A stretch of DNA of 64,000 bases from assembly GCF_029227855.1 (NCBI RefSeq), contig NZ_CP074356.1; one strand, written 5' to 3'. The position numbers and the translations under genes were made by a program. Positions 2,983 through 46,250 of this stretch are shown one piece after another; positions within the stretch are counted from its first letter, which is position 1; every line of letters begins with the position of its first letter. The notes under the pieces are model-generated. The model did not search any database and was not told the origin of the DNA. It saw only the letters and a list, made by a program, of their open reading frames with translations. Source of the DNA: Escherichia coli. GTDB taxonomy: Bacteria > Pseudomonadota > Gammaproteobacteria > Enterobacterales > Enterobacteriaceae.

Positions 2983-4197
2983 ATGAAGATCGTAAAGGCT
3001 GAAGTTTTTGTTACCTGTCCGGGGCGTAATTTCGTCACATTAAAAATCACTACTGAGGACGGTATTACGGGCCTTGGGGATGCCACCCTCAATGGACGTG
3101 AGCTTTCCGTGGCCTCTTATTTGCAGGATCACCTTTGTCCGCAGCTTATTGGTCGCGATGCGCACCGTATCGAAGATATCTGGCAGTTTTTCTATAAAGG
3201 TGCTTACTGGCGTCGCGGCCCGGTGACGATGTCGGCCATTTCAGCGGTTGATATGGCGCTGTGGGATATTAAAGCCAAAGCTGCCAACATGCCGCTTTAC
3301 CAGTTACTCGGCGGCGCGTCTCGTGAAGGGGTGATGGTTTATTGCCATACCACCGGTCACAGTATTGATGAAGCTCTGGATGATTATGCCCGTCATCAGG
3401 AGCTGGGATTCAAAGCCATCCGCGTGCAGTGCGGAATCCCTGGTATGAAAACCACATACGGCATGTCGAAAGGTAAAGGTCTGGCTTATGAACCCGCAAC
3501 CAAAGGACAGTGGCCGGAAGAGCAGCTGTGGTCGACGGAGAAATACCTCGATTTCATGCCGAAATTGTTTGACGCGGTACGTAACAAGTTTGGTTTTAAT
3601 GAACATTTGCTGCATGACATGCACCATCGCTTAACGCCTATTGAAGCGGCGCGCTTTGGTAAAAGCATTGAAGATTATCGCATGTTCTGGATGGAAGACC
3701 CGACGCCTGCGGAAAACCAGGAATGCTTCCGTCTCATTCGCCAACATACCGTCACACCCATCGCGGTGGGTGAAGTCTTCAACAGCATCTGGGACTGCAA
3801 GCAACTGATTGAAGAGCAACTTATCGATTATATCCGCACTACGCTGACCCACGCGGGTGGCATTACCGGTATGCGCCGGATTGCCGATTTTGCTTCGCTG
3901 TATCAGGTACGTACTGGCTCACACGGTCCTTCCGATTTGTCACCAGTCTGCATGGCTGCGGCGCTGCACTTTGATCTGTGGGTCCCCAATTTCGGTGTCC
4001 AGGAATACATGGGTTATTCCGAACAAATGCTCGAAGTCTTCCCGCACAACTGGACTTTCGATAACGGCTATATGCATCCGGGAGACAAACCGGGTCTTGG
4101 CATCGAATTCGATGAAAAGCTGGCGGCGAAATATCCCTATGAATCTGCTTATCTACCAGTCGCACGTCTGGAAGATGGCACGCTGTGGAACTGGTAA
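2983..4197 (+). CDS. rspA: starvation-sensing protein RspA (enolase superfamily, mannonate dehydratase-like)
   Basis: 404-aa ORF from ATG 2983 ([40 protein letters not shown]...), enolase-superfamily motifs. Confidence 0.95.
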
Positions 4198-4208
4198 GGA
4201 GTAAGATA

Positions 4209-5228
4209 ATGAAAAGCATTTTAATTGAAAAACCGAATCAACTGGCAATTATCGAACGCGAAATACCTACCCCGTCAGCGGGTGAAGTACGAGTAAAAGT
4301 GAAACTTGCCGGAATTTGTGGTTCAGATAGCCATATTTATCGTGGGCATAATCCTTTTGCGAAATATCCGCGCGTCATTGGACATGAATTTTTTGGCGTC
4401 ATTGATGCAGTGGGTGAAGGCGTGGAAAGCGCCAGAGTCGGTGAACGCGTTGCTGTCGATCCGGTGGTCAGCTGTGGGCATTGCTATCCGTGCTCTATAG
4501 GTAAGCCGAACGTTTGTACAACACTGGCTGTATTAGGTGTGCACGCTGACGGTGGTTTCAGTGAATATGCCGTGGTTCCGGCAAAAAATGCGTGGAAAAT
4601 TCCTGAAGCAGTGGCCGATCAATATGCGGTGATGATCGAACCTTTTACCATTGCGGCGAACGTAACCGGTCATGGTCAACCGACTGAAAATGATACCGTT
4701 CTGGTTTACGGTGCCGGTCCAATCGGCCTGACGATCGTTCAGGTATTAAAAGGCGTCTATAACGTTAAAAATGTGATTGTTGCCGATCGCATTGATGAAC
4801 GACTGGAAAAAGCGAAAGAGAGCGGGGCTGACTGGGCGATTAATAACAGCCAGACACCGCTTGGCGAGATTTTCGCTGAAAAAGGCATAAAGCCGACATT
4901 AATTATCGATGCGGCTTGTCATCCTTCTATCCTGAAAGAGGCCGTAATTCTGGCTTCTCCAGCGGCACGTATTGTATTGATGGGCTTCTCCAGTGAACCG
5001 TCTGAAGTGATTCAGCAAGGAATTACCGGAAAAGAACTCTCTATTTTCTCTTCACGCTTAAATGCAAATAAATTCCCGGTCGTTATCGACTGGTTAAGTA
5101 AAGGGTTAATTAAACCAGAAAAATTAATTACCCATACGTTTGATTTCCAGCATGTTGCTGATGCCATTAGTTTATTTGAACAGGATCAAAAACATTGCTG
5201 CAAAGTCTTACTCACTTTTTCTGAATAA
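4209..5228 (+). CDS. rspB: zinc-dependent dehydrogenase RspB
   Basis: 339-aa ORF from ATG 4209 (MKSILIEKPNQLAIIERE...), GHEFFG zinc-ADH motif and GAGPIG Rossmann motif. Confidence 0.95.
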   Translation: MKSILIEKPNQLAIIEREIPTPSAGEVRVKVKLAGICGSDSHIYRGHNPFAKYPRVIGHEFFGVIDAVGEGVESARVGERVAVDPVVSCGHCYPCSIGKPNVCTTLAVLGVHADGGFSEYAVVPAKNAWKIPEAVADQYAVMIEPFTIAANVTGHGQPTENDTVLVYGAGPIGLTIVQVLKGVYNVKNVIVADRIDERLEKAKESGADWAINNSQTPLGEIFAEKGIKPTLIIDAACHPSILKEAVILASPAARIVLMGFSSEPSEVIQQGITGKELSIFSSRLNANKFPVVIDWLSKGLIKPEKLITHTFDFQHVADAISLFEQDQKHCCKVLLTFSE

Positions 5229-9619: not shown

Positions 9620-9820
9620 TTAAAGACCTGCCGGGATTTCGTTATTATCCTGGTGAATAACTTTATCGACAGGGTAACAGTTACCGGGAATTTTCTGTTC
9701 GGTTGCTGCAGTCACACACTCCTGCATTGTCCTGTGAACACTGACTGCAATATCAACTGGTTCTCCGGAAACAAGAAAAACTGTCAGAACAAGTGCAAAT
9801 GCTGTATTCATTGCCAGCAT
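9620..9820 (-). CDS. hypothetical small secreted phage protein
   Basis: ORF with hydrophobic N-terminus MLAMNTAFALVLTVFLVSG; weak RBS; start uncertain. Confidence 0.3.
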   Translation of the reverse strand: MLAMNTAFALVLTVFLVSGEPVDIAVSVHRTMQECVTAATEQKIPGNCYPVDKVIHQDNNEIPAGL

Positions 9821-9996
9821 CCTTTTTGTATCGGACGTAAACGGGCCAGCATTGAAAGAATGCATACTTTATTTAATAGCTCCCGTTCTTGTTTTCTCTT
9901 GTTAATGGCATCTTCAGTAAATACTGGGTTACTGATAGTGACACCAATTTCAAAACAACCTTCAGACGTATTAACGTTTGGTAATAACGTTTTCAT
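9808..9996 (-). CDS. hypothetical early-left phage protein
   Basis: ATG at 9996 (MKTLLPNVNTSEGCFEIG...) preceded by SD gagga with about 7-nt spacer. Confidence 0.4.
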   Translation of the reverse strand: MKTLLPNVNTSEGCFEIGVTISNPVFTEDAINKRKQERELLNKVCILSMLARLRPIQKGCWQ

Positions 9997-10482
9997 TATC
10001 GCGTCCTCAACAATGAATTTTGTGATGCAGTGCCTGGTGCCTCCAGGTGACGTTAACCAGTTAACAATTAACGTCGGATACAGAGAATCCACCCATAACA
10101 CTGTTTTTGGTTTTAACTGTTCCGCGTGCGCTCAGCCGCATTCACCGCATCACAAAATTCACTTTAAAAACGGCGGCAGAGCAGTCACGGAGTAAAACTG
10201 ATACCGCTAAACGTCACCAGAAAATTGATAACAGAGGGCGTTGCAGCGGGGTTGTCACTTAAGCGTATGGTCAACCTGACAACCCGGTGTCCTCAACGGG
10301 GAAGGAATAACCCCGCCATACTTACCGCCGCGCCATTTCGCGGGTTGCCACAACCGGAAGCGCACGGTCGAATTAAATTTAACGACACCGTACAGTGAGA
10401 CGAACTTCGCCGTGCGCTTTCGTGTTGTGTGCCTGCTTTTAACCACGTCAGGCGAGGTGGTATCCTTAAAATCACCACAGTT

Positions 10483-11058
10483 TTAAGGATTCATTAAGCA
10501 ATGTCGCAACCACCAATAAATCCGCTTAAGAACATGAAAATTGATTACTGGTATAAAGCGCTTACAGTTGTTGGCGCTGCGTTGTTTGTCTTTAATGGAA
10601 CGTCTTTTTTTGACAGATATCCCGTTGTTCCATTGGGTTTTTTGTCCTCCGGCATCTTTTTTATTGGTTTGGGGGAGTGGATTAATCACCCTCTCAAAGT
10701 GAGATTTATTGGTCCTGGAGTTTGGACTCGTGGATATAATCGTTCTTCGTGCGCACTCGGTATCATCTTCGACATACTTGGTTGTTTCCTGATTGTTACA
10801 GGAGTCGTCAAGTTCTTCTGATGTAAAACCGCAAATGGGGCACGTAACGGGAATTTTGAAAAGCGTTTCTCCGGGTTCCAGAACAAAATTTTCTGCGGTC
10901 TGATTTTGCTTCTCATATTTGTGCTCCGCGTCATTGTGAGAGCACATTCTTATTCTGAGTGCCTGTTTAAACTCACTGAAGCTGAGAGCTTCTTCGCCTT
11001 CGGCAAGACCTTCGAAGTATTCTTCGTAAGCCTTTTCCATGATTGTGTCGAAATCCAT
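10483..11058 (-). CDS. hypothetical phage protein with zinc-ribbon-like N-terminal half
   Basis: Start ATG 11058 with SD aggtga; N-terminal half MDFDTIMEKAYEEYFEGL... with C-x-H...CPICG motif; C-terminal half fully overlaps a plus-strand ORF in antisense codon register, so one of the two is probably an artefact. Confidence 0.35.
   Translation of the reverse strand: MDFDTIMEKAYEEYFEGLAEGEEALSFSEFKQALRIRMCSHNDAEHKYEKQNQTAENFVLEPGETLFKIPVTCPICGFTSEELDDSCNNQETTKYVEDDTECARRTIISTSPNSRTNKSHFERVINPLPQTNKKDAGGQKTQWNNGISVKKRRSIKDKQRSANNCKRFIPVINFHVLKRIYWWLRHCLMNP
10501..10821 (+). CDS. hypothetical 3-TM membrane protein (possible superinfection-exclusion-like)
   Basis: 106-aa ORF with three clear hydrophobic segments separated by short polar loops; overlaps the minus-strand ORF 10483-11058 in antisense; cannot decide which is real without codon statistics. 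Confidence 0.35.
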   Translation: MSQPPINPLKNMKIDYWYKALTVVGAALFVFNGTSFFDRYPVVPLGFLSSGIFFIGLGEWINHPLKVRFIGPGVWTRGYNRSSCALGIIFDILGCFLIVTGVVKFF

Positions 11059-11059
11059 A

Positions 11060-11215
11060 TCACTCACCTGAGTTTCTTTCCAGCCAGCGACGGGCACCAT
11101 TTTCGGTTTTAAACGTTTTGCTTTTGGTATATGTCATCGCGGTGAACGTACCGTCCTGGTTGGGGAACACGCCACATACCAGAGATTCGCTGTTGCCAAG
11201 ATCGATAGTATCCAT
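11060..11215 (-). CDS. hypothetical small phage protein
   Basis: ORF 11060-11269; likely start MDTIDLGNSE at 11215; stop adjacent to start of downstream gene. Confidence 0.35.
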   Translation of the reverse strand: MDTIDLGNSESLVCGVFPNQDGTFTAMTYTKSKTFKTENGARRWLERNSGE

Positions 11216-11329
11216 GCTGACCTCATTTCCCCTTAACGCCGGGGTCGCGGAACTGTTTGCTGAGAACACCGTGCGGTGTCTTGATGGAAAGTAATTTAGA
11301 ATAACCTAACACGAGAGGCAAGTGTTTTT

Positions 11330-11347
11330 TGTTAGATTGATCTAACA
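11330..11347. promoter_or_regulatory. operator-like palindrome TGTTAGA-N4-TCTAACA (copy 1)
   Basis: Perfect 7-4-7 inverted repeat tgttagattgatctaaca downstream of repressor gene; same half-sites as 11841-11858. Confidence 0.55.
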
Positions 11348-11383
11348 AAAAGAGTGGGCGCAACTAATCACTTGAAAAGAATG

Positions 11384-11791
11384 TTATTTTATTGATTTAT
11401 TTTTACGCGCTTTAAGCATTTCTTCGAAGAGTTTGTTGAAGTTTTCTACTCTTGCGCGCATTTCAGACAGCAAGGCTTCCTGCTCGGAAGATGGAAGAGC
11501 ATCGAATAATTCGATCAATTCTTTGTGGTTGGGAGTTAGCTCTGTTTCCACATGAAGTTCTTGTGCAGGCACTGGTGCCTTGTCTTCGTCACCAAACATT
11601 AGCCATGTAGGTGAGCACTTCAGAGCATCCGCTAAAGCAAACAATCGTTTTCCGACTGGCTGGGTTTCGTCTCTTTCCCATTGTGAAATTGTGACGTGAG
11701 CAACTCCAGCGAGGCGCGCAGCTTCTCGTTGTGTTAAGCGTAATTCTTTTCGTCGCGCCAGAACTCGCTGGCCTAGGGTTCTTGTATCCAT
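11384..11791 (-). CDS. DicA-like HTH (XRE family) prophage repressor
   Basis: 135-aa ORF; HTH LTQREAARLAGVAHVTISQWERDETQP; no peptidase S24 domain; divergent from a Cro/DicC-like gene. Confidence 0.85.
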   Translation of the reverse strand: MDTRTLGQRVLARRKELRLTQREAARLAGVAHVTISQWERDETQPVGKRLFALADALKCSPTWLMFGDEDKAPVPAQELHVETELTPNHKELIELFDALPSSEQEALLSEMRARVENFNKLFEEMLKARKNKSIK

Positions 11792-11840
11792 AGTTAGGTA
11801 ATTCTAATTTTTCTTGACTTAGGTATCCCGCGCACAATAA

Positions 11841-11858
11841 TGTTAGAAAAGTCTAACA
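11841..11858. promoter_or_regulatory. operator-like palindrome TGTTAGA-N4-TCTAACA (copy 2) overlapping divergent promoter region
   Basis: Perfect inverted repeat tgttagaaaagtctaaca between repressor and Cro-like gene; TTGACT hexamer at about 11813. Confidence 0.6.
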
Positions 11859-11871
11859 AGAGGGGGCTTTG

Positions 11872-12099
11872 ATGCTTAAAGTTGACGCAATTACTTTTTT
11901 TGGCAGCAAAACAAAGCTTGCCAATGCCGCAGGAGTGAGACTGGCAAGTGTTGCTGCTTGGGGGATACTGGTTCCTGAAGGTCGCGCGATGCGTCTACAG
12001 GAGGCATCTGGCGGGGAGCTTCAGTATGATCCCAAAGTTTATGACGAATATCGTAAGACGAAGCGGGCGGGGCGGTTGAACAATGAAAATCACTCCTGA
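11872..12099 (+). CDS. DicC/Cro-like small regulator
   Basis: 75-aa ORF MLKVDAITFFGSKTKLANAAGVRLASVAAWG..., SD aggggg, divergent from repressor. Confidence 0.8.
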   Translation: MLKVDAITFFGSKTKLANAAGVRLASVAAWGILVPEGRAMRLQEASGGELQYDPKVYDEYRKTKRAGRLNNENHS

Positions 12100-12604
12100 A
12101 CAGGCTCGTGAGGCTCTGGATGCCTGGATATGTCGACCAGGAATGACACAGGAGCAGGCGACGATATTAATCACTGAAGCATTCTGGGCTTTGAAAGAGC
12201 GCCCGAACATCGATGTTCAGCGTGTCACATATGAAGGTGGCGCGGTTGATCAGCGAGCGCTTAGCGTTAATCGAGTGAAGATATTCGAACGCTGGAAGGC
12301 TATCGACACCAGGGATAAGCGTGAAAAGTTCACAGCGCTAGTGCCTGCAATTATGGAGGCTATCCGGATTAGTGATTTCAGGTTGTATCGTGAGATCAGT
12401 GATGGAAAAAGTATTACGTACATGATCGCCGGGTTAAATAAAGAATATGGCGATGTGGTGGAATCCGGACTGCTTTTTGCAGATCCTGCCGTTGTAGATC
12501 GTGAAACTGACGAACTTATAGAAAAAGCAATTGCTTTCAAGCTTGCGTATCGACAGCAATACCAACAAAAAGCTGGATGGAATTATGAGTCTTCTTTTTG
12601 CTGA
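12083..12604 (+). CDS. hypothetical early regulatory protein (CII/YdaT-like position)
   Basis: 173-aa ORF overlapping the Cro-like gene stop; family not verified. Confidence 0.55.
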   Translation: MKITPEQAREALDAWICRPGMTQEQATILITEAFWALKERPNIDVQRVTYEGGAVDQRALSVNRVKIFERWKAIDTRDKREKFTALVPAIMEAIRISDFRLYREISDGKSITYMIAGLNKEYGDVVESGLLFADPAVVDRETDELIEKAIAFKLAYRQQYQQKAGWNYESSFC

Positions 12605-14587: not shown

Positions 14588-15184
14588 ATGGTTGGTGTTA
14601 CTCAAAGGTCAGGGAATTACTCACGTAATGTGCAGGTGGTTGTCGATTCTAACTCTGTTGATATTATAAAGTCTCCATCGATTTTTATGGATCTTGTTGG
14701 TATTTTAGTTGATTCGAATGTTATTGATCCTCGTACAAACAATGACTACGAGCCATATGATATTGAGAATAAAATAGACTTCAATGATGTTATAAAACAT
14801 AGAGAACGTATTGAAGGGTTCTATCTATATTCTTCGATGATAGATAAAGCGTATGAAACATTAAATGAAAGTATGCCTACTGCTAAGGAAACGGCACTGA
14901 AAAGCATCAATTCACGATATCTTGATTGTCAAGGAGATTTATTGCTTAAACATAGAGAAGCGTATAAGAGCTGCAAGGATGCTCAGGAACGGAATAATTT
15001 AAAGATTCAATTGGTAAGAGAGTTTGCAGATTGGATAATAGACAGTGTAATAGAGCACATCATTAAGAAATGCTTAAATTCTCTTATGGCAATGAATTAC
15101 ACAAGCGAAGAAATCGAATGCCATGCTTCTTTTATCGTTTATCATGCATTCGTAGAGTGTAAGATTCTGGAAAAACCAATATGA
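14588..15184 (+). CDS. hypothetical protein, 198 aa (candidate effector/partner of SMC-like ATPase)
   Basis: ATG 14588 with SD gagg; AT-rich codon usage; stop overlaps next start (ATGA). Confidence 0.6.
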   Translation: MVGVTQRSGNYSRNVQVVVDSNSVDIIKSPSIFMDLVGILVDSNVIDPRTNNDYEPYDIENKIDFNDVIKHRERIEGFYLYSSMIDKAYETLNESMPTAKETALKSINSRYLDCQGDLLLKHREAYKSCKDAQERNNLKIQLVREFADWIIDSVIEHIIKKCLNSLMAMNYTSEEIECHASFIVYHAFVECKILEKPI

Positions 15185-15417
15185 TTATCTCTGATGTAAC
15201 AAAACCAAGCCAAACCTTGTATTACCTGGGAGCTCGGTTATTAGAATGCATGAGTTCAAATGCTTATTCGTATGTTGATATTATAGACTTGTATAATGAA
15301 TTCAAATCTAAAAATAACAACTCTTCATTCACGCAATATATTTACACTTTAAATTGGCTATATTTATTAGGCCTGGTTGATGCTAACGAAAATGGAGATT
15401 TGATATTATGTTTTTGA
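15181..15417 (+). CDS. hypothetical small protein, 78 aa (candidate middle component)
   Basis: Translationally coupled to both neighbours: 4-nt overlap upstream, 10-nt overlap downstream. Confidence 0.5.
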   Translation: MIISDVTKPSQTLYYLGARLLECMSSNAYSYVDIIDLYNEFKSKNNNSSFTQYIYTLNWLYLLGLVDANENGDLILCF

Positions 15418-17132
15418 AACGGCTAATAGTCAGTTCTTTCAGGCTTGGAGTGATTCGTGATATCGAATTTCACATTGGCGTTAATTTGATTATTGACCGA
15501 AACACCTCCAGCAAAGAGCAAACTGGAAATGGTGTGGGAAAAACTACTGTATTAAGAGCTTTAGATTTTTGTTTTGGAGCAGAACAACTGAATTTTTATA
15601 CCGATCCTGAATTCAAGAAAGAAAATTCGGTTATAAAAAATTATTTGATAGAGAACGAGATTGAGTTTTGTTTAATTCTCACAAAAGATTTGAATAATAA
15701 AACTGCACCAGTAATAAAAATTAAGCGTAAAATTACATCTGAGACTAATAAAACGAAGGTTATAGCCTCAATAAATGAAGAGTCCTATACGAAGGCTAAA
15801 GATTTCAACGAGGCTTTAAAAAGAACATTATATCTTGATTCCGCGATAAAACCGACCATACGAGAGATTATGGGACGTGTTATTCGAAATACGCATGACA
15901 AGATGTCGAACGCATTAAAAACGATAAAAATGGGTTCTAATACACAATATGAAACGTTAAATCTGTTTATGTTTGGGTTCGGTAACTCACAGATTCTGGA
16001 TGAAAAACAGTCAGTGACTAAAGCCTATAAACTGGCGAAATCCGATTATGAAGTAATTACTCGCCATCGCTCAAAGAATGCTTTGGAACAAGCTATTGCA
16101 ATTATAAATAGAGATATTATAGCACAAGAAGAGTTAATTTCTAATTTTCAAGTGGCAGACTCTTATAATGATATGCTTGCTGAGTTAAATGAGTTAAAAA
16201 TTAAAATTAGTGAAGTTTCTATCACACTATCATCTTTGGAGTTTAAGCAAAAATTAAACGATAAGGCTATACTAGATCTGGAAAAAAGTCATGAAAATAT
16301 AAATACACTAGATCTACAGAAGTTGTACTTAGAAGCAACTGATCGGTTAGGTAACTTAAACAAAGAGTTTACTGAGCTACTTTCGTTTCATAATAAAATG
16401 CTTGTAAAAAAAGCTGAGTTTATTAGAAAACAAATGCAGCCAGTGCTGCAAGAAATTTCCAAATATAAAGATGAACTAAATAATTTATTGACTCAAGAAT
16501 CAGAGCTTTTAAAGAGTTTGTCTTCGCATGGGACATTGGCAGACCTGCAAATAATGCAAAAAAAATTAAATTCATTATTTGAAGAAAAAGGTGGGCTTGA
16601 AGCTGGACTACTTCAAATCCAAGAGATGGAGAACAACTTTAATATACTGAAAGCAAAGTTTAATGATGTGTCAGATAGATTAAAATCTAAACTTGACGAT
16701 TTTAACAAACGTCTTGCGCTATTCAATTCCTATTTTTCTTTATATACTAAAAAATTATATCAGGATGAATATATTCTTTCCTATAAAGATTCCTCCGGTT
16801 CTTTCGTTTTTACCATTGAACCTTTAGGAACTTTGCTCACATCAGGTAATCAGGGAGAAGGAAAAAAGAAAGCCCAGGTTGCCTCTTTAGATTTTGCCTA
16901 TTTATCTGTCCAGGAGTCTTTAGAAGCCAGAACACCACGTTTTATAGCTCATGATGGAATTGAGGCAATTCATGTAAATCAAATAAATAAGTTATTCGAG
17001 ATAGCTTCGGGGATTAATGGTCAATATATATTGGCTATTCTTAAAGACAAGTTGGAGAATATTGATCAAGACTTCATCAATAATAGTGTTGTGCTTGAGC
17101 TTGGGGAGGACGATAAGTTTTTTAGGCTTTAA
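15408..17132 (+). CDS. SMC-like ABC-type ATPase with long coiled-coil insert, 574 aa
   Basis: N-terminal RecF/SMC-like head with Walker A TGNGVGKTT (about 15522-15548); roughly 230-aa K/E/L-rich coiled-coil region; C-terminal signature-like SGNQGEG and Walker-B-like RFIAHDG followed by IEAIH. Confidence 0.7.
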   Translation: MFLKRLIVSSFRLGVIRDIEFHIGVNLIIDRNTSSKEQTGNGVGKTTVLRALDFCFGAEQLNFYTDPEFKKENSVIKNYLIENEIEFCLILTKDLNNKTAPVIKIKRKITSETNKTKVIASINEESYTKAKDFNEALKRTLYLDSAIKPTIREIMGRVIRNTHDKMSNALKTIKMGSNTQYETLNLFMFGFGNSQILDEKQSVTKAYKLAKSDYEVITRHRSKNALEQAIAIINRDIIAQEELISNFQVADSYNDMLAELNELKIKISEVSITLSSLEFKQKLNDKAILDLEKSHENINTLDLQKLYLEATDRLGNLNKEFTELLSFHNKMLVKKAEFIRKQMQPVLQEISKYKDELNNLLTQESELLKSLSSHGTLADLQIMQKKLNSLFEEKGGLEAGLLQIQEMENNFNILKAKFNDVSDRLKSKLDDFNKRLALFNSYFSLYTKKLYQDEYILSYKDSSGSFVFTIEPLGTLLTSGNQGEGKKKAQVASLDFAYLSVQESLEARTPRFIAHDGIEAIHVNQINKLFEIASGINGQYILAILKDKLENIDQDFINNSVVLELGEDDKFFRL

Positions 17133-17577: not shown

Positions 17578-17733
17578 ATGAAGCAGCAAAAGGCGATGTT
17601 AATCGCCCTGATCGTCATCTGTTTAACCGTCATAGTGACGGCACTGGTAACGAGGAAAGACCTCTGCGAGGTACGAATCCGAACCGGCCAGACGGAGGTC
17701 GCTGTCTTCACAGCTTACGAACCTGAGGAGTAA
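17578..17733 (+). CDS. hokD: Hok-family type I toxin HokD
   Basis: 51-aa product MKQQKAMLIALIVICLTVIVTALVTRKDLCEVRIRTGQTEVAVFTAYEPEE matches remembered HokD/RelF. Confidence 0.85.
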   Translation: MKQQKAMLIALIVICLTVIVTALVTRKDLCEVRIRTGQTEVAVFTAYEPEE

Positions 17734-17949
17734 GAGACCCGGCGAGGGAGAAATCCCTCGCCACCTCTGATGTGACAGGCATCCTCAACGCACCCGCACT
17801 TAACCCGCTTCGGCGTGTTTTTGTTTTTATTTTCAACGCGTTTGAAGTTCTGGACGGTGCCGGAATAGAATCAAAAATACTTAAGTAGCGCGCAGGGATA
17901 AGAGGGATGTTCCCTTAAAGGGGAGAGCTAATTATCCGGAAGGATTCTG

Positions 17950-18201
17950 ATGATGAACATCGAAGAACTGCGTAAAATTTTTTGTGAAGATGGCCTCTAT
18001 GCTGTGTGCGTTGAAAATGGAAATCTTGTTAGTCATTACCGCATTATGTGTTTGCGAAAGAATGGGGCTGCGTTAATTAATTTTGTGGATGGTCGAGTGA
18101 CAGACGGATTTATCTTGCGCGAAGGTGAGTTTGTCACTTCATTACAGGCACTGAAAGAGATCGGAATAAAAGCAGGCTTTTCAGCTTTTGCAGAAGAATA
18201 A
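17950..18201 (+). CDS. rem: prophage protein Rem
   Basis: 83-aa product MMNIEELRKIFCEDGLYAVCVENGNL... matches remembered Qin Rem. Confidence 0.85.
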   Translation: MMNIEELRKIFCEDGLYAVCVENGNLVSHYRIMCLRKNGAALINFVDGRVTDGFILREGEFVTSLQALKEIGIKAGFSAFAEE

Positions 18202-19614: not shown

Positions 19615-19992
19615 ATGCGTGATATTCAGATGGTTCTTGAGCGTTGGGGGGCATGGGCGGCTAATAATCATGAAGATGTGACCTGGTCGTCCATTGCCGC
19701 TGGTTTTAAGGGATTAATTCCTTCAAAAGTAAGATCTCGTCCGCAATGCTGTGACGATGACGCGATGATCATTTGTGAATGTATGGCTCGCCTGAGAAAA
19801 AACAACAGCGATTTACATGGTTTATTGGTGGACTATTATGTCGGCGGCATGACTTTTATGGCGCTTGCACGTAAGCATGGGCGATCTGATTGTTGGGTTG
19901 GCAGGATGCTCCAGAAAGCTGAGGGCGTAGTGGAGGGCATGCTGATGGTATTGGATCTCCGATTGGAGATGGATGCTGATTGTTCGAAATAA
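19615..19992 (+). CDS. late-gene antitermination protein Q
   Basis: 125-aa [27 protein letters not shown]... typical of small Q antiterminators; followed by terminator. Confidence 0.85.
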
Positions 19993-20090
19993 TTAAAGGA
20001 AAAGTTGCTGTCTGATTGTCATTAGTCTAACATTTTAAATGTTGGAATCGCAACGTAGTTATTATCATATAACAGCTTGTTTCCTGATTT

Positions 20091-20119
20091 AGCCAGCCTC
20101 CCCAAAGGCTGGTTTTTTT
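20091..20119 (+). terminator. rho-independent terminator downstream of Q (tR'-like)
   Basis: Stem ccagcc / ggctgg with loop, followed by TTTTTTT. Confidence 0.55.
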
Positions 20120-20147
20120 CTAATAAGTATCATTTCGGGTAGGGATT

Positions 20148-20672
20148 TTATTGTTTAACCCATAATAATTCATTGACATTGAATCCCAACTTTTGAGCGG
20201 TTCGCACATAGTCTGCTTTTACTTTATCTGGAATAGTTGGGGTCCTTGCCAGAATCCATAGGTATTCTCTGTTCGAACCACTAACAAGAGCATACTTATA
20301 CTCATCATCCAGTTTGATTACATTATAGCCACCATAGAAGGGGCCAAAAAACGAAACCTTCAACGCTGCAGTTTTAGTATCTCCAGTAAAGTATGCTTTA
20401 CCTTCGCTCTCGCTCCATTTATTTTTCGTTGGATCGTATCCACGGTTAAGTACACGAATCCCTCCGTCGTTCCGTTTTCCATAAGTAGCGCTGACCTGTT
20501 CCAGACCACGTTCGAACCGGTTCTCGAGGCGAGCTATTTCATACCATTTTCCGAGGTAGCGGTTGGCGTCAAAATTTGTAATCGGCTGCACACCTTTAGG
20601 TGGTGTCGGGGCCTTACATGCTATAAGAGTGAAAGAGAGTGCAATGCCAGTCAACACAGGCCATAACTTCAT
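20148..20672 (-). CDS. bacterial lipocalin Blc-like outer-membrane lipoprotein
   Basis: ATG 20672 with SD agga; lipobox LIACK; lipocalin motifs NFDANRYLGKWYEIAR and FFGPFYGGYNVI. Confidence 0.85.
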   Translation of the reverse strand: MKLWPVLTGIALSFTLIACKAPTPPKGVQPITNFDANRYLGKWYEIARLENRFERGLEQVSATYGKRNDGGIRVLNRGYDPTKNKWSESEGKAYFTGDTKTAALKVSFFGPFYGGYNVIKLDDEYKYALVSGSNREYLWILARTPTIPDKVKADYVRTAQKLGFNVNELLWVKQ

Positions 20673-20864
20673 AATCAATCCTGTACTTTTGATAGTTGAG
20701 AGTAAGTATGAAAGATAGATGATTACGACCGATCACTTAAAGAACTTTCATACTATATTAGGAATAGTCCATAACAGAAAAATTGTCAGTGATGACGTCA
20801 GAAAGGCAATTTATTCCGTGCACTACACAGTTTATGTGTTAATGAATTAGTCAAGGGGGAGGAT

Positions 20865-21824
20865 ATGATAAAAAAACCTGTGATTGGAATCAGCGGTTGT
20901 TTGGCCGGTTCTGCTGTTCGTTTTGATGGTGGTCACAAAAGAGCTGACTTTTTAATGGACAAATTAGTGGAATGGGTAACATTCAGACCAGTATGTCCGG
21001 AAATGGCTATAGGGCTGCCAGTTCCGCGTCCTGCTCTACGTCTTGTGCGCTCGAAGCAAGGAAATATACGGATGTGTTTCAGCCACGACCAGAATGAGGA
21101 TGTGACAGAGAGAATGACAGAGTTTAGTCGTTCTTATATGCACAAATTAAAGGATGTATCGGGGTTTGTGGTTTGTGCTAAATCTCCCAGCTGTGGCATG
21201 GAGCGCGTGCGTGTCTATGATGAAAATGGTAATCGAGGTCGTAAAGATGGAGTGGGACTATTTACGAGCACTTTGATGGAAAAGTTTTCCTGGCTACCGG
21301 TTGAAGAGGATGGGCGATTACATGATCCAGTGCTTCGTGAGAATTTTGTTGAAAGAGTTTTTGCTTTGCATGAGCTCAATCACCTTTACAAGGAGAAATT
21401 ATCAAGAAGAGAGTTATTAGCTTTTCATAGTCGTTATAAGCTTCAGTTGTTGGCGCATAGTCAGGCAGGCTATAAAGATATGGGACCATTTGTGGCTGCA
21501 ATACACGAGTGGGCGGACCTTGAATCATACTTTGAGGTGTATCGTGATAAGCTGATGGCGATTCTCAGAAAACCTGCATCACGTAAAAATCACACGAATG
21601 TGCTGATGCATATACAGGGGTATTTTAGTAATTACTTAAGTACACGCCAGCGTAAAGAGTTGACCGAGGTTATACTTAACTATCGCTTTGGCACATTGCC
21701 TCTTCTTGCGCCGTTGACTCTGCTGAAGCATTATCTGGGTGAGTATCCTAATGATTACTTGCTTACACAGAATTACTTCGATCCCTATCCGGAAGAACTG
21801 GCTCTAAGACTGATGGTGAATTAA
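20865..21824 (+). CDS. DUF523 (TudS-like) plus DUF1722 (YbgA-like) fusion protein
   Basis: 319-aa ORF with SD agggggagg; N-terminal Cys-containing GISGCLAG...CPEM...SPSCG; C-terminal half YbgA-like. Confidence 0.75.
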   Translation: MIKKPVIGISGCLAGSAVRFDGGHKRADFLMDKLVEWVTFRPVCPEMAIGLPVPRPALRLVRSKQGNIRMCFSHDQNEDVTERMTEFSRSYMHKLKDVSGFVVCAKSPSCGMERVRVYDENGNRGRKDGVGLFTSTLMEKFSWLPVEEDGRLHDPVLRENFVERVFALHELNHLYKEKLSRRELLAFHSRYKLQLLAHSQAGYKDMGPFVAAIHEWADLESYFEVYRDKLMAILRKPASRKNHTNVLMHIQGYFSNYLSTRQRKELTEVILNYRFGTLPLLAPLTLLKHYLGEYPNDYLLTQNYFDPYPEELALRLMVN

Positions 21825-22230
21825 CTGTATGCGATATCATCTGAAAGTGATGAGTTCCTGTATGCAGGATATTTACAATCGTAAAAACTACACTATGATA
21901 CCCATAGTGTCAGTTTGTATAAAAATCCTGTTCACGCTGAAGAAAACATTGAGATGCAATTTAATGTTGGTAAACATACCAGCCCCAAAAGATTTTATTC
22001 AATCTGTTTTTATATGAAGATATTTCAAGTGAATATTAAGAGTATATAATATTATTATTGCACGCAGCTATTATAATATAACAGATTAGTTTAATGATTT
22101 GTTTTTTGTGAGTTAAACACATGGTTTTATAGTTGTGATGCAATGAGATTTTCCTTATTGTTGAACTGGCGAATATTGATTTTCCACCTATACTTACCTG
22201 GTGTAACCCCAGTGATATCAGGTGGATAAT

Positions 22231-22944
22231 ATGCCATACATATGTTCTGTCATTTTGGTGTTGAACTCGTTTGGTGTCCGAATTGGTAAAGAAGATATTT
22301 TGTTTAAAAAAGGAAGTGCTGTCCTCATCGAATACAATTTAAAAGATCTTTTTTCGTCAAATACAGATCATCTAATGATCGTAGATGTTGAGGAGAAAAC
22401 AGTTAATGATTTCTTTAAAAACTACACACTCTCACCTTTTTCTGTAAGAAGGTTTTATCCGGCATACTTGATAGTAGAATGTGAAGGTTTTTCTTTGTTA
22501 AAGAACTTGGTTGCATGCTTGAATTGTGATAGCAAAACCGTGGATGTGGTTAGAAATCAAATATCACTTGCATGTCTTGCTGTCTTATCTTCAGAGAAAA
22601 TAGTGCAAAGTTTTTTGTTCGGAAGTCTTAATAGCTTAGGTTGTAAAGTTAAGGCTATTATTCACTCGGATATCTCAGCGTCATGGAGACTTTGTGATAT
22701 ATCTTCAAGATTATATATGAGCGAGAGTTTGTTAAAAAGAAAATTAAAAGACGAAGGGGTATCGTTTAGTAGATTAATTCTTGAAGAACGAATGATGATG
22801 GCGCAAAGATTATTAATTTACAGTAACCATACTGTCGGCAAGGTGGCGGGAATATGCGGGTATGACAATGCATCATATTTTGTAAGTGTTTTTAGAAGAT
22901 ATTTTGGTGTGCCTCCGCACCAATATTTATCAAGATTTTCTTAG
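22231..22944 (+). CDS. AraC-family transcriptional regulator (AppY-like)
   Basis: C-terminal AraC HTH (GKVAGICGYDNASYFVSVFRRYFGVPPHQY); N-terminal half resembles remembered AppY; AT-rich. Confidence 0.8.
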   Translation: MPYICSVILVLNSFGVRIGKEDILFKKGSAVLIEYNLKDLFSSNTDHLMIVDVEEKTVNDFFKNYTLSPFSVRRFYPAYLIVECEGFSLLKNLVACLNCDSKTVDVVRNQISLACLAVLSSEKIVQSFLFGSLNSLGCKVKAIIHSDISASWRLCDISSRLYMSESLLKRKLKDEGVSFSRLILEERMMMAQRLLIYSNHTVGKVAGICGYDNASYFVSVFRRYFGVPPHQYLSRFS

Positions 22945-23135
22945 AAGATATGATGTGATGGCATTTTATAAAGTTGTTTTTTTGAAGTGTAAGATTATAC
23001 GATATTTTTAGCTACGCCAGAATAATTGCTGGCGTTTTTCTTTTTGAATAGATGTTCGGGCCTTACGCTAATGTAATTTTTTTCCTTCTTCGAACCAAAC
23101 CGTGTACACCATCCGTTATCTGCGGAGGTGAGGCT

Positions 23136-45568: not shown

Positions 45569-46250
45569 GTGCACAGAAAACCCCCAGCTAGGCTGGGGGT
45601 TCCGGAAAGCTTTCAGCTTTGAGCCAGTTATTAAAACCCCTTTTGATTTGTTAAAACACTTTGCGGTCTGGCAACTGCAAGTGTCAAACAAGAAATCAAA
45701 AGGGGGTCCCAATGGGGAACGAAAAGAGCTTAGCGCACACCCGATGGAACTGTAAATATCACATAGTTTTTGCGCCAAAATACCGAAGACAGGTGTTCTA
45801 CAGAGAGAAGCGTAGAGCAATAGGCAGTATTTTGAGAAAGCTGTGTGAGTGGAAAAGCGTACGGATTCTGGAAGCTGAATGCTGTGCAGATCATATCCAT
45901 ATGCTTGTGGAGATCCCGCCCAAAATGAGCGTATCCGGGTTTATGGGATATCTGAAAGGGAAAAGCAGTCTGATGCTTTACGAGCAGTTTGGTGATTTGA
46001 AATTCAAATACAGGAACAGGGAGTTCTGGTGCAGAGGGTACTACGTCGATACAGTGGGTAAGAACACGGCGAAGATACAGGATTACATAAAGCACCAGCT
46101 TGAAGAGGATAAAATGGGAGAGCAGTTATCGATTCCCTATCCGGGCAGCCCGTTTACGGGCCGTAAGTAACGAAGTTGGATGCAAATGTCAGATCGTGTG
46201 CGCCTGTTAGGGCGCGGCTGGTAAGAGAGCCTTATAGGCGCATTTGAAAA
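45569..46250 (+). mobile_element. IS200-type insertion sequence (IS200/IS605 family)
   Basis: Y1 (HUH) transposase gene flanked by short noncoding ends; perfect palindrome cccccagctaggctggggg at 45581-45599 near the left end; boundaries approximate. Confidence 0.7.
45712..46170 (+). CDS. tnpA: IS200-type transposase TnpA
   Basis: 152-aa product MGNEKSLAHTRWNCKYHIVFAPKYRRQVFY... with HUH-like HMLVEIPP and catalytic Tyr region. Confidence 0.85.
   Translation: MGNEKSLAHTRWNCKYHIVFAPKYRRQVFYREKRRAIGSILRKLCEWKSVRILEAECCADHIHMLVEIPPKMSVSGFMGYLKGKSSLMLYEQFGDLKFKYRNREFWCRGYYVDTVGKNTAKIQDYIKHQLEEDKMGEQLSIPYPGSPFTGRK

Follow-up and report, generated by a model that had tools for sequence, protein, structure and literature searches.

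The DicA/DicC immunity locus of the cryptic prophage Qin of Escherichia coli K-12 was reportedly described by Bejar et al. in 1986 and 1988. The Qin locus has also been treated by Yun et al. 2012 (PMC3441716) and by Ragunathan et al. 2023 (PMC10448788). In K-12, cloned Oc titrates DicA, DicA binds Oc in an in vivo repression assay, and a single A-to-C change in Oc abolishes this binding (PMC3441716). DicA at Oc both represses dicC and is required for dicA expression, and no DicA binding to Oa was found in vivo (PMC3441716). A DicA site at the dicC promoter was recovered by Reg-Seq, whose authors noted that the site at dicB was listed in the databases they used (2020) as low-evidence and of unknown location (PMC7567609). 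In K-12, lambda-like operators are reported in the intergenic regions, and the dicBp promoter, upstream of ydfA, is repressed 22-fold by DicA and derepressed 165-fold by the antirepressor Rem, through which RecA-independent induction of DicA is the published view (PMC10448788). DicA and RacR are explicitly listed among the Gifsy-type short repressors that are not cleaved (PMC3121763).

The locus studied here lies in a stretch of 64 kb, referred to as a whole as the window. It is very probably the DicA/DicC immunity switch of a Qin-family lambdoid prophage, with operators at both early promoters. A DicA/DicC-type switch had been proposed in an initial annotation, and the proposal is borne out by a repressor 57% identical to K-12 DicA, a Cro-type regulator 86% identical to DicC, and dicF, dicB and ydfA in synteny (Table 1). 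Our reading draws on homology and on the positions and conservation of the sites as seen in the window. Binding of DicA to the half-site, repression of dicCp and dicBp, and the action of Rem are presumed by analogy with the K-12 literature, while the exact promoters used here, and any cooperation between the left sites, are predictions.

The window holds a near-complete Qin-family prophage at the K-12 Qin site (rspB/ydfJ). A Megablast search with a 2.3-kb stretch matched 4328 of 5426 complete E. coli genomes, 241 of them at a coverage of at least 80%. In the annotation of a 100%-identical genome, a lambdoid prophage lies between rspB and a truncated ydfJ. Its genes run in the order int, xis, exonuclease, ydfD, dicB, ydfB (partial), ydfA, an HTH protein and a Cro/CI regulator, then a YdaT-family protein, replication genes, an ABC-three-component defence cassette, hokD, rem, ydfU and the antiterminator Q, which is present in the window, and finally lysis genes, terminase, head and tail genes, pinQ and ydfK. 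Both the attachment site and the gene order match those of cryptic K-12 Qin. The dicC-like gene is divergent from the repressor gene, and its product matches Pfam P22_Cro (E 5e-12) and appears in RefSeq as a Cro/CI family regulator. The YdaT-like protein matches PHROG 163, "CII-like transcriptional activator" (E 9e-41). Rfam also detected sok.

Table 1. Features of the predicted immunity switch and its surroundings; positions are those of the window.
Feature	Position	Strand	Basis or remark
dicB cell-division inhibitor, leftward operon	9808..9996	-	Pfam DicB, E 8e-38
DicF small RNA, leftward operon	10171..10222	-	Rfam RF00039, 64.8 bits vs gathering score 48
ydfA (DUF1391), first gene of leftward operon	11060..11215	-	Pfam, E 9e-28; RefSeq
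Conserved leader of dicBp transcript, about 70 nt	11219..11287	-	Homologue comparison, covariance model; unannotated
Predicted leftward early promoter dicBp (PL-equivalent)	11293..11321	-	Sequence reading and K-12 alignment
Putative left operator, proximal	11294..11311		Minus strand TGTTAGGTTATTCTAAAT, 2 mismatches; over dicBp spacer and -10
Putative left operator, distal	11329..11348		TTGTTAGATTGATCTAACAA; pattern search and K-12 alignment; directly upstream of dicBp -35
dicA-like prophage repressor, 135 aa	11384..11791	-	K-12 DicA homology, Pfam, PDB, AlphaFold2
Weak operator-like site ("Oa" position)	11792..11809		3 mismatches; overlaps -10-like TAGAAT
Predicted rightward early promoter dicCp (PR-equivalent)	11814..11841	+	TTGACT-16-AATAAT; consensus scan, 10/12 matches
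Putative right operator, K-12 Oc equivalent	11841..11858		TGTTAGAAAAGTCTAACA; pattern search, promoter scan, Oc alignment
dicC-like Cro-type regulator, 75 aa	11872..12099	+	86% identical to K-12 DicC
YdaT-family / CII-like protein downstream of dicC	12083..12604	+	Pfam YdaT_toxin, E 4e-6
rem, published DicA antirepressor	17950..18201	+	96% identical to K-12 Rem

The initial annotation had reported two copies of the palindrome TGTTAGA-N4-TCTAACA (TGTTAGANNNNTCTAACA), and both were recovered as perfect copies, TGTTAGATTGATCTAACA at 11330-11347 and TGTTAGAAAAGTCTAACA at 11841-11858. When up to two mismatches to TGTTAGANNNNTCTAACA were allowed, these were the sole matches in the 64 kb, as compared to 0.19 expected; two matches were reached in none of 100 shuffles, and a chance origin of the perfect palindromes was rejected on this basis. 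The two lie 511 bp apart, on either side of the repressor gene. At three mismatches, 22 matches were observed across the window against 21.97 expected, which is the chance frequency, and the weaker related sites at 11294-11311 (two mismatches) and 11792-11809 (three mismatches) were therefore retained solely for their position and their conservation in homologues. The three-mismatch search of the window yielded no operator-like site near rem.

Nine distinct alleles of the TGTTAG operator class, comprising the window, K-12 and IMG/VR contigs, were compared. Three operator sites are found at fixed positions in all nine, with conserved half-sites and variable centres. The half-sites are identical, as had been annotated, but the seventh base assigned to them differs among alleles, and the conserved part is (T)TGTTAG with a 6-bp variable centre. 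In other phages, the two corresponding places at the locus of the DicA homologue are occupied by different palindromes. CCTTAG-N6-CTAAGG is present at both places in PPompW and in a Klebsiella phage, while the palindromes are TTGAG-N4-CTCAA in mEp460 and CTAAC-N4-GTTAG in phiES15. The recognition helices of mEp460 and phiES15 differ from that of the window's repressor, and those of PPompW and the Klebsiella phage are the same or nearly the same. Such variation is usual where immunity diversifies.

At the right-hand site, the intergenic palindrome aligned with K-12 Oc (TTGTTAGTCATAACTAACAA), the half-sites TTGTTAG/CTAACAA being identical and the centre different, and a perfect site was present at this position in all nine alleles. 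An overlap with a promoter-like region had been noted from the start. The consensus scan sharpened this observation, as TTGACT-16-AATAAT was the sole sigma-70-like match within 11000-12200, and from its position it follows that the palindrome begins on the last base of the -10 element. The palindrome also covers the predicted start site, near 11848 on the plus strand, and repressor binding here would thus be expected to shut the rightward promoter.

On the downstream side of dicA, alignment shows the same order in the window and in K-12: distal site, -35, proximal site with -10, leader, ydfA. The predicted dicBp consists of a -35 element TTGCCT (11321-11316), a 17-nt spacer and a -10 element TAAATT (11298-11293), with a start near 11285; its K-12 counterpart in the alignment is TTGACC-17-TAATCT. 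The hexamers in the window are weak and fall below the threshold of the consensus scan. Counting back in K-12 from the RNase III site published at +813/814, with the coordinates of DicF, would put the start within a few nucleotides of the prediction. The distal site keeps its position in all nine alleles and is perfect in the allele type of the window, as compared to one or two mismatches in the K-12 type (two in K-12 itself). The proximal site is likewise fixed in position and always has two mismatches, in the window, in K-12 and in the remaining alleles of the TGTTAG class. The centres of the two left sites are separated by 36 bp (∼3.4 turns), a phasing that is not obviously cooperative.

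The initial annotation had suggested that the palindrome downstream of the repressor gene serves looping or autoregulation. Since the two left sites bracket the dicBp -35 and cover its -10, looping is not needed to account for them, and this palindrome is best read as the OL-equivalent operator of dicBp, abutting the -35 and with its partner over the -10. Lambda CI is known to loop OL to OR, and by that precedent the two palindromes, 511 bp apart, could be bridged by repressor oligomers, mainly for repressor autoregulation. Two perfect sites with identical half-sites on either side of the repressor gene, a spacing of 510-511 bp that is constant across alleles, and a C-terminal helical domain that could mediate higher-order contacts all fit a loop of this kind, which we nonetheless consider unlikely. 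The constant spacing is a trivial consequence of the conserved 135-codon gene, tetramerisation is unsupported, and the distal site by the -35 together with its partner over the -10 already suffices. Moreover, the K-12-type distal site is degenerate, with one or two mismatches, in a system that still works (PMC10448788).

The lack of a strong terminator after the repressor gene in the window raises another explanation for the downstream palindrome, namely that bound protein acts as a roadblock against repressor transcripts entering the toxic ydfA-dicF-dicB operon. Clear terminators, each a GC-rich hairpin with a T-run, follow the repressor genes of four loci with other operator/leader classes (L017, L024, L038 and L056), whereas the window has only a 4-bp stem before the run CTCTTTTT, and a terminator scan gave no candidate between 11330 and 11384. 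We regard a roadblock as very unlikely all the same, as the argument is purely inferential, the K-12 sites at the same position are degenerate, and a roadblock would be compatible with promoter repression rather than exclusive of it. The idea that the palindromes arose by chance or are merely structural, such as mRNA hairpins, and bind no protein deserves next to no credence. They can form hairpins, but nothing else favours it; two matches occurred in 0 of 100 shuffles, the half-sites are identical to those of an experimentally validated operator, and conservation extends to position and half-sites but not to the centres.

The promoter of the repressor gene itself is less well marked. A -10-like TAGAAT (11802-11807, minus strand) lies 9 nt before the dicA ATG, with neither a -35 element nor a Shine-Dalgarno sequence, and the repressor mRNA, with a predicted start at 11791-11795, is probably near-leaderless and in need of help, as lambda PRM is. 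Homologues of different operator specificity (L005 and L006) likewise conserve the sequence of the 3-mismatch site (11792-11809), which is therefore more likely to be promoter sequence than an operator; a promoter with a near-leaderless start would explain it at least as well as an operator role. The repressor promoter overlaps the strong dicC promoter back-to-back, and DicA bound at Oc would sit at about -55 relative to its own promoter, a position that is atypical for activation. Because of this overlap and this position, the reported DicA "activation" at Oc may in fact reflect a lifting of the occlusion that the dicC promoter imposes.

The repressor shares 57% identity and 77% positives with K-12 DicA over 132 aa (E 4e-55), and the two proteins are of the same length. 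Pfam places HTH_3 at residues 12-64 and gave no match in the rest of the protein, while the N-terminal 70 residues match the DNA-binding domain of P22 C2 (PDB 1ADR, E 1e-18). An AlphaFold2 model built with 20 homologues as input (pLDDT 84) has five helices in its HTH domain (1-66), then a linker of low confidence (67-86), and ends in a helical hairpin (87-98 and 101-134). The modelled HTH domain superposes on 3JXB at 0.7 Å with 49% identity. The annotated length of 135 aa and the divergence from a Cro-like gene hold, but the description of the protein as HTH-only is inaccurate, as residues 87-134 form a conserved hairpin whose motif, LLxLFxxLPxxE..., recurs in many short prophage repressors whose N-terminal domains are unrelated. 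L99, P100 and E103 are nearly invariant in an alignment of 20 short repressors. The C-terminal domain is likely the dimerisation surface and the target of the antirepressor.

No Peptidase_S24 match was found by Pfam in the repressor, whose C-terminal part is modelled as a helical hairpin, and without this domain self-cleavage on RecA filaments is not expected. The linker (67-86) contains no Ala-Gly or Cys-Gly cleavage site; the protein's sole Ala-Gly, residues 28-29, falls where the second HTH helix ends and the HTH turn starts. A search of the whole window by tblastn with HK022 CI and LexA gave no CI- or LexA-like match below E 0.1, so that no cleavable CI was found elsewhere in the window either. 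The only other sizeable HTH protein, of 237 aa (22231-22944), was considered as a cleavable CI and rejected as AraC-type. These results agree with the earlier expectation of a prophage with neither a peptidase-containing CI nor a recognisable N, none being found in the window by Pfam, PHROGs or tblastn. Induction outside the RecA-cleavage route had also been anticipated, together with a search for an antirepressor; such induction is the published view for DicA (PMC10448788), and the window carries the gene for its antirepressor, Rem. No LexA-box-like match was present in the region before rem (17700-17950) with up to three mismatches allowed. We infer that Rem acts on the repressor of the window, despite its being only 57% identical to K-12 DicA.

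Taken together with the K-12 literature, these features suggest how the switch might operate. A dimeric DicA-type repressor would bind inverted repeats of the form (T)TGTTAG-N6-CTAACA(A). At 11841-11858 it would block RNA polymerase at dicCp, keeping dicC, ydaT (CII-like) and the replication genes off, and, by analogy with K-12, would also permit transcription from its own weak, nearly leaderless promoter. At the left sites, the perfect one at 11329-11348 and the weaker one at 11294-11311, placed around the dicBp -35 and over its -10, it would silence ydfA, DicF, dicB, ydfD, the exonuclease gene, xis and int. Derepression would come about through Rem, the small antirepressor whose gene lies 6 kb rightward, and also through DicC-dependent bistable switching.

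A further feature of the locus is the conserved PL leader. The stretch of ∼70 nt from dicBp to ydfA is far better conserved than the sequence on either side. Within it, hairpin 1 varies, and both GUUCCGC and a hairpin, CCC(C)-GGCGUUAA-GGG(G), are invariant. The core, GTTCCGC-N2-3-CCCGGCG(T/A)TAAG, was present in at least 120 IMG/VR contigs, and in the examples inspected it lies just 3' of the promoter that follows a short repressor gene, with many operator types, and just 5' of varying first genes. The covariance model detected exactly one copy per locus, and neither nhmmer nor the covariance model found a second copy on the PR side. Helix 1 shows compensatory changes at four of its five pairs, with a score reached in 0 of 500 shuffles, in an alignment that was fitted to the model and is thus biased toward structure. 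Helix 2 and its loop are invariant. RNAalifold, run on a MAFFT alignment, pointed to a possible 4-pair CGC(N)/GGCG (or GCG) stem, which would make a pseudoknot with the CCCC/GGGG hairpin, in a region that is nearly invariant and shows too little covariation to weigh it. The fold energy is unexceptional (z-score 0.32). The leader was rejected as coding sequence, because 1-nt indels (CCCC vs CCC) shift the frame between alleles, and hairpin 1 was rejected as a repressor operator, as the same hairpin accompanies three different operator specificities.

Rfam gave no match to the leader, and at a permissive E-value only two noise matches were obtained over 11000-12200. Searches by nhmmer in both directions revealed no similarity to HK022 putL or putR, and a literature search with sequence strings of the leader returned no match. 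In a comparison with HK022 put, two hairpins occur in the leader at the expected place just after PL, but their stems are short and the fold energy, as noted above, is unexceptional. The first gene of the PL operon is ydfA (DUF1391), which is not of the N family; no N homologue was found among the early-left ORFs with PHROGs and Pfam, nor by tblastn with lambda N, searches with low sensitivity for a short divergent N. No boxA-like motif was seen in the leader, which is present once only, on the PL side. That the leader is a new cis-acting regulatory RNA, found in many enterobacterial prophages with repressors of the short, antirepressor type and without an N gene, is a distinctly doubtful proposal at present. 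One possible role is as an N-independent, put-like antitermination or anti-Rho element; if put-like, it would allow readthrough of the DicF terminator and of the long untranslated stretches to dicB, exo, xis and int. A translational control hairpin or switch acting on the first PL gene is also possible, its 3' strand being Shine-Dalgarno-like, as is a processing or stability element.

The DicA/DicC system was already known from publications on its operators, its autoregulation and its antirepressor (PMC3441716, PMC10448788, PMC3121763), and the locus appears to be a divergent allele of the known K-12 Qin system in a more complete prophage. Re-identification of the published switch matters little by itself. 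The perfect left palindrome and the comparison of nine alleles do, however, pin the predicted DicA sites at dicBp to two positions flanking the -35, and a near-intact relative of Qin would make Rem induction, DicA/DicC bistability and the PL leader testable on a phage that may still be lytic-competent.

Among known systems, SinR/SinI and SPbeta-like pairs offer a structural analogy only. They too combine an XRE-type HTH with a helical C-terminal domain that can be targeted by a small protein antagonist, and a fold search with the repressor model returned PDB 1B0N, 9SF2 and 9IAQ. The SinR-type matches are driven by the HTH, however, with a whole-chain rmsd of about 11 Å and no demonstrated homology in the C-terminal part. 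P22 C2/Cro and lambda CI/Cro share with the window the divergent repressor and cro genes and the operators at the PR and PL equivalents; in addition, the N-terminal domain of the repressor is 45-50% identical to that of P22 C2 and superposes on it at 0.7 Å, and the Cro-like protein falls in Pfam P22_Cro. Unlike those of P22 and lambda, the repressor of the window has no S24 peptidase/oligomerisation domain and no Ala-Gly cleavage site in its linker, and a single strong right operator stands where P22 and lambda have three graded ones. P22 and the window also differ in operator sequence, and no N homologue was found in the window.

Further parallels are the Gifsy repressors GfoR and GtgR with their antirepressors GfoA and GftA (Lemire et al. 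2011, PMC3121763), which at ∼135 aa likewise lack a cleavage domain and, as in the DicA class, are inactivated by a small antirepressor (PMC3121763). The C-terminal helical motif LLxLFxxLPxxE... of the window's repressor is shared with these short repressors. While the Gifsy antirepressor genes sit behind a LexA box, rem in the window has no LexA-box-like sequence nearby. The closest system remains K-12 Qin, which agrees with the window in chromosomal site, in the order dicC, dicA, ydfA, ydfB, dicF, dicB, ydfD, in a 135-aa repressor without an S24 domain, in the half-site TTGTTAG/CTAACAA and in the presence of rem. Against this background, the repressor of the window is just 57% identical to its K-12 counterpart, as compared to 86% for DicC and 96% for Rem, and the left distal operator is perfect in the window and has two mismatches in K-12. 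Between the replication-side genes and hokD, K-12 Qin has relBE where the window has the ABC-three-component defence cassette. Finally, K-12 Qin has lost int, xis and the exonuclease, replication, lysis and morphogenesis genes, all of which the prophage in the window keeps.

The PL-equivalent promoter is followed by a short leader of about 70 nt that is far more strongly conserved than the sequence flanking it. Its layout consists of a covarying hairpin (hairpin 1), followed by an invariant GUUCCGC and then by an equally invariant CCC(C)-GGCGUUAA-GGG(G) element. At least 120 viral contigs carry the leader, with one copy per phage, and it is located 3' of many differing short repressors. A comparison of the leader with Rfam yielded no family match, and no similarity was found to the HK022 put antiterminator RNA.

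Features of the prophage and adjacent host sequence, with window coordinates
Feature	Coordinates	Strand	Remarks
Leader, ~70 nt	11219-11287	minus	Between PL-equivalent promoter and ydfA
191-aa ORF	10483-11058	minus	Begins with YdfB sequence (MDFDTIMEKAYEEYFEG...)
ABC-three-component defence cassette	14588-17132	plus	ABC-3C protein, middle component 6, DUF2326
rem, DicA antirepressor	region 17700-18201		3' of a terminator-like hairpin, itself after hokD
Cargo genes	19615-23000		Between Q and lysis genes
STnc490, Hfq-binding sRNA	45579-45702		Rfam match; within prophage tail region
STnc560, Hfq-binding sRNA	61011-61224		Rfam match; host side, past ydfJ

At the ydfB locus, where the sole RefSeq annotation is a truncated ydfB pseudogene, the 191-aa open reading frame is covered in its entirety by PHROG 35040 (profile positions 15-205 of 205, E = 5e-141). 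The frame may be a genuine gene, longer than K-12 ydfB, which would then be its remnant.

The recognition helix of the DicA-type repressor, (A/S)HVTISQWERDETQP, is the same or nearly so in PPompW and a Klebsiella phage, yet the palindromes of these two phages differ from those of the window in the two outer bases (CCTTAG versus TGTTAG). That the outer bases differ while the helix is largely shared implies that residues not in helix 3 set the specificity for these two positions.

No LexA-box-like sequence was found upstream of rem (window 17700-18201). We speculate that, in an intact phage, transcripts of the rightward early operon could read through into rem and so express it; if so, derepression would gain positive feedback.

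Among the cargo genes are members of the lipocalin and YbgA families, together with the gene for an AraC-type regulator of 237 aa (22231-22944). The defence cassette is placed between the replication-side genes and hokD, an interval that in K-12 Qin is instead occupied by relBE, ydfV and flxA.

When the immunity region (11384-12099) was compared with its K-12 counterpart (3621-4342 of the K-12 comparison locus), a mosaic boundary was located within it. While the leader/ydfA side is nearly identical in K-12 Qin and DicC is 86% identical, DicA is only 57% identical. Despite this divergence of DicA, the operator half-sites are the same, and because they are unchanged the window and K-12 prophages are predicted to be homo-immune.
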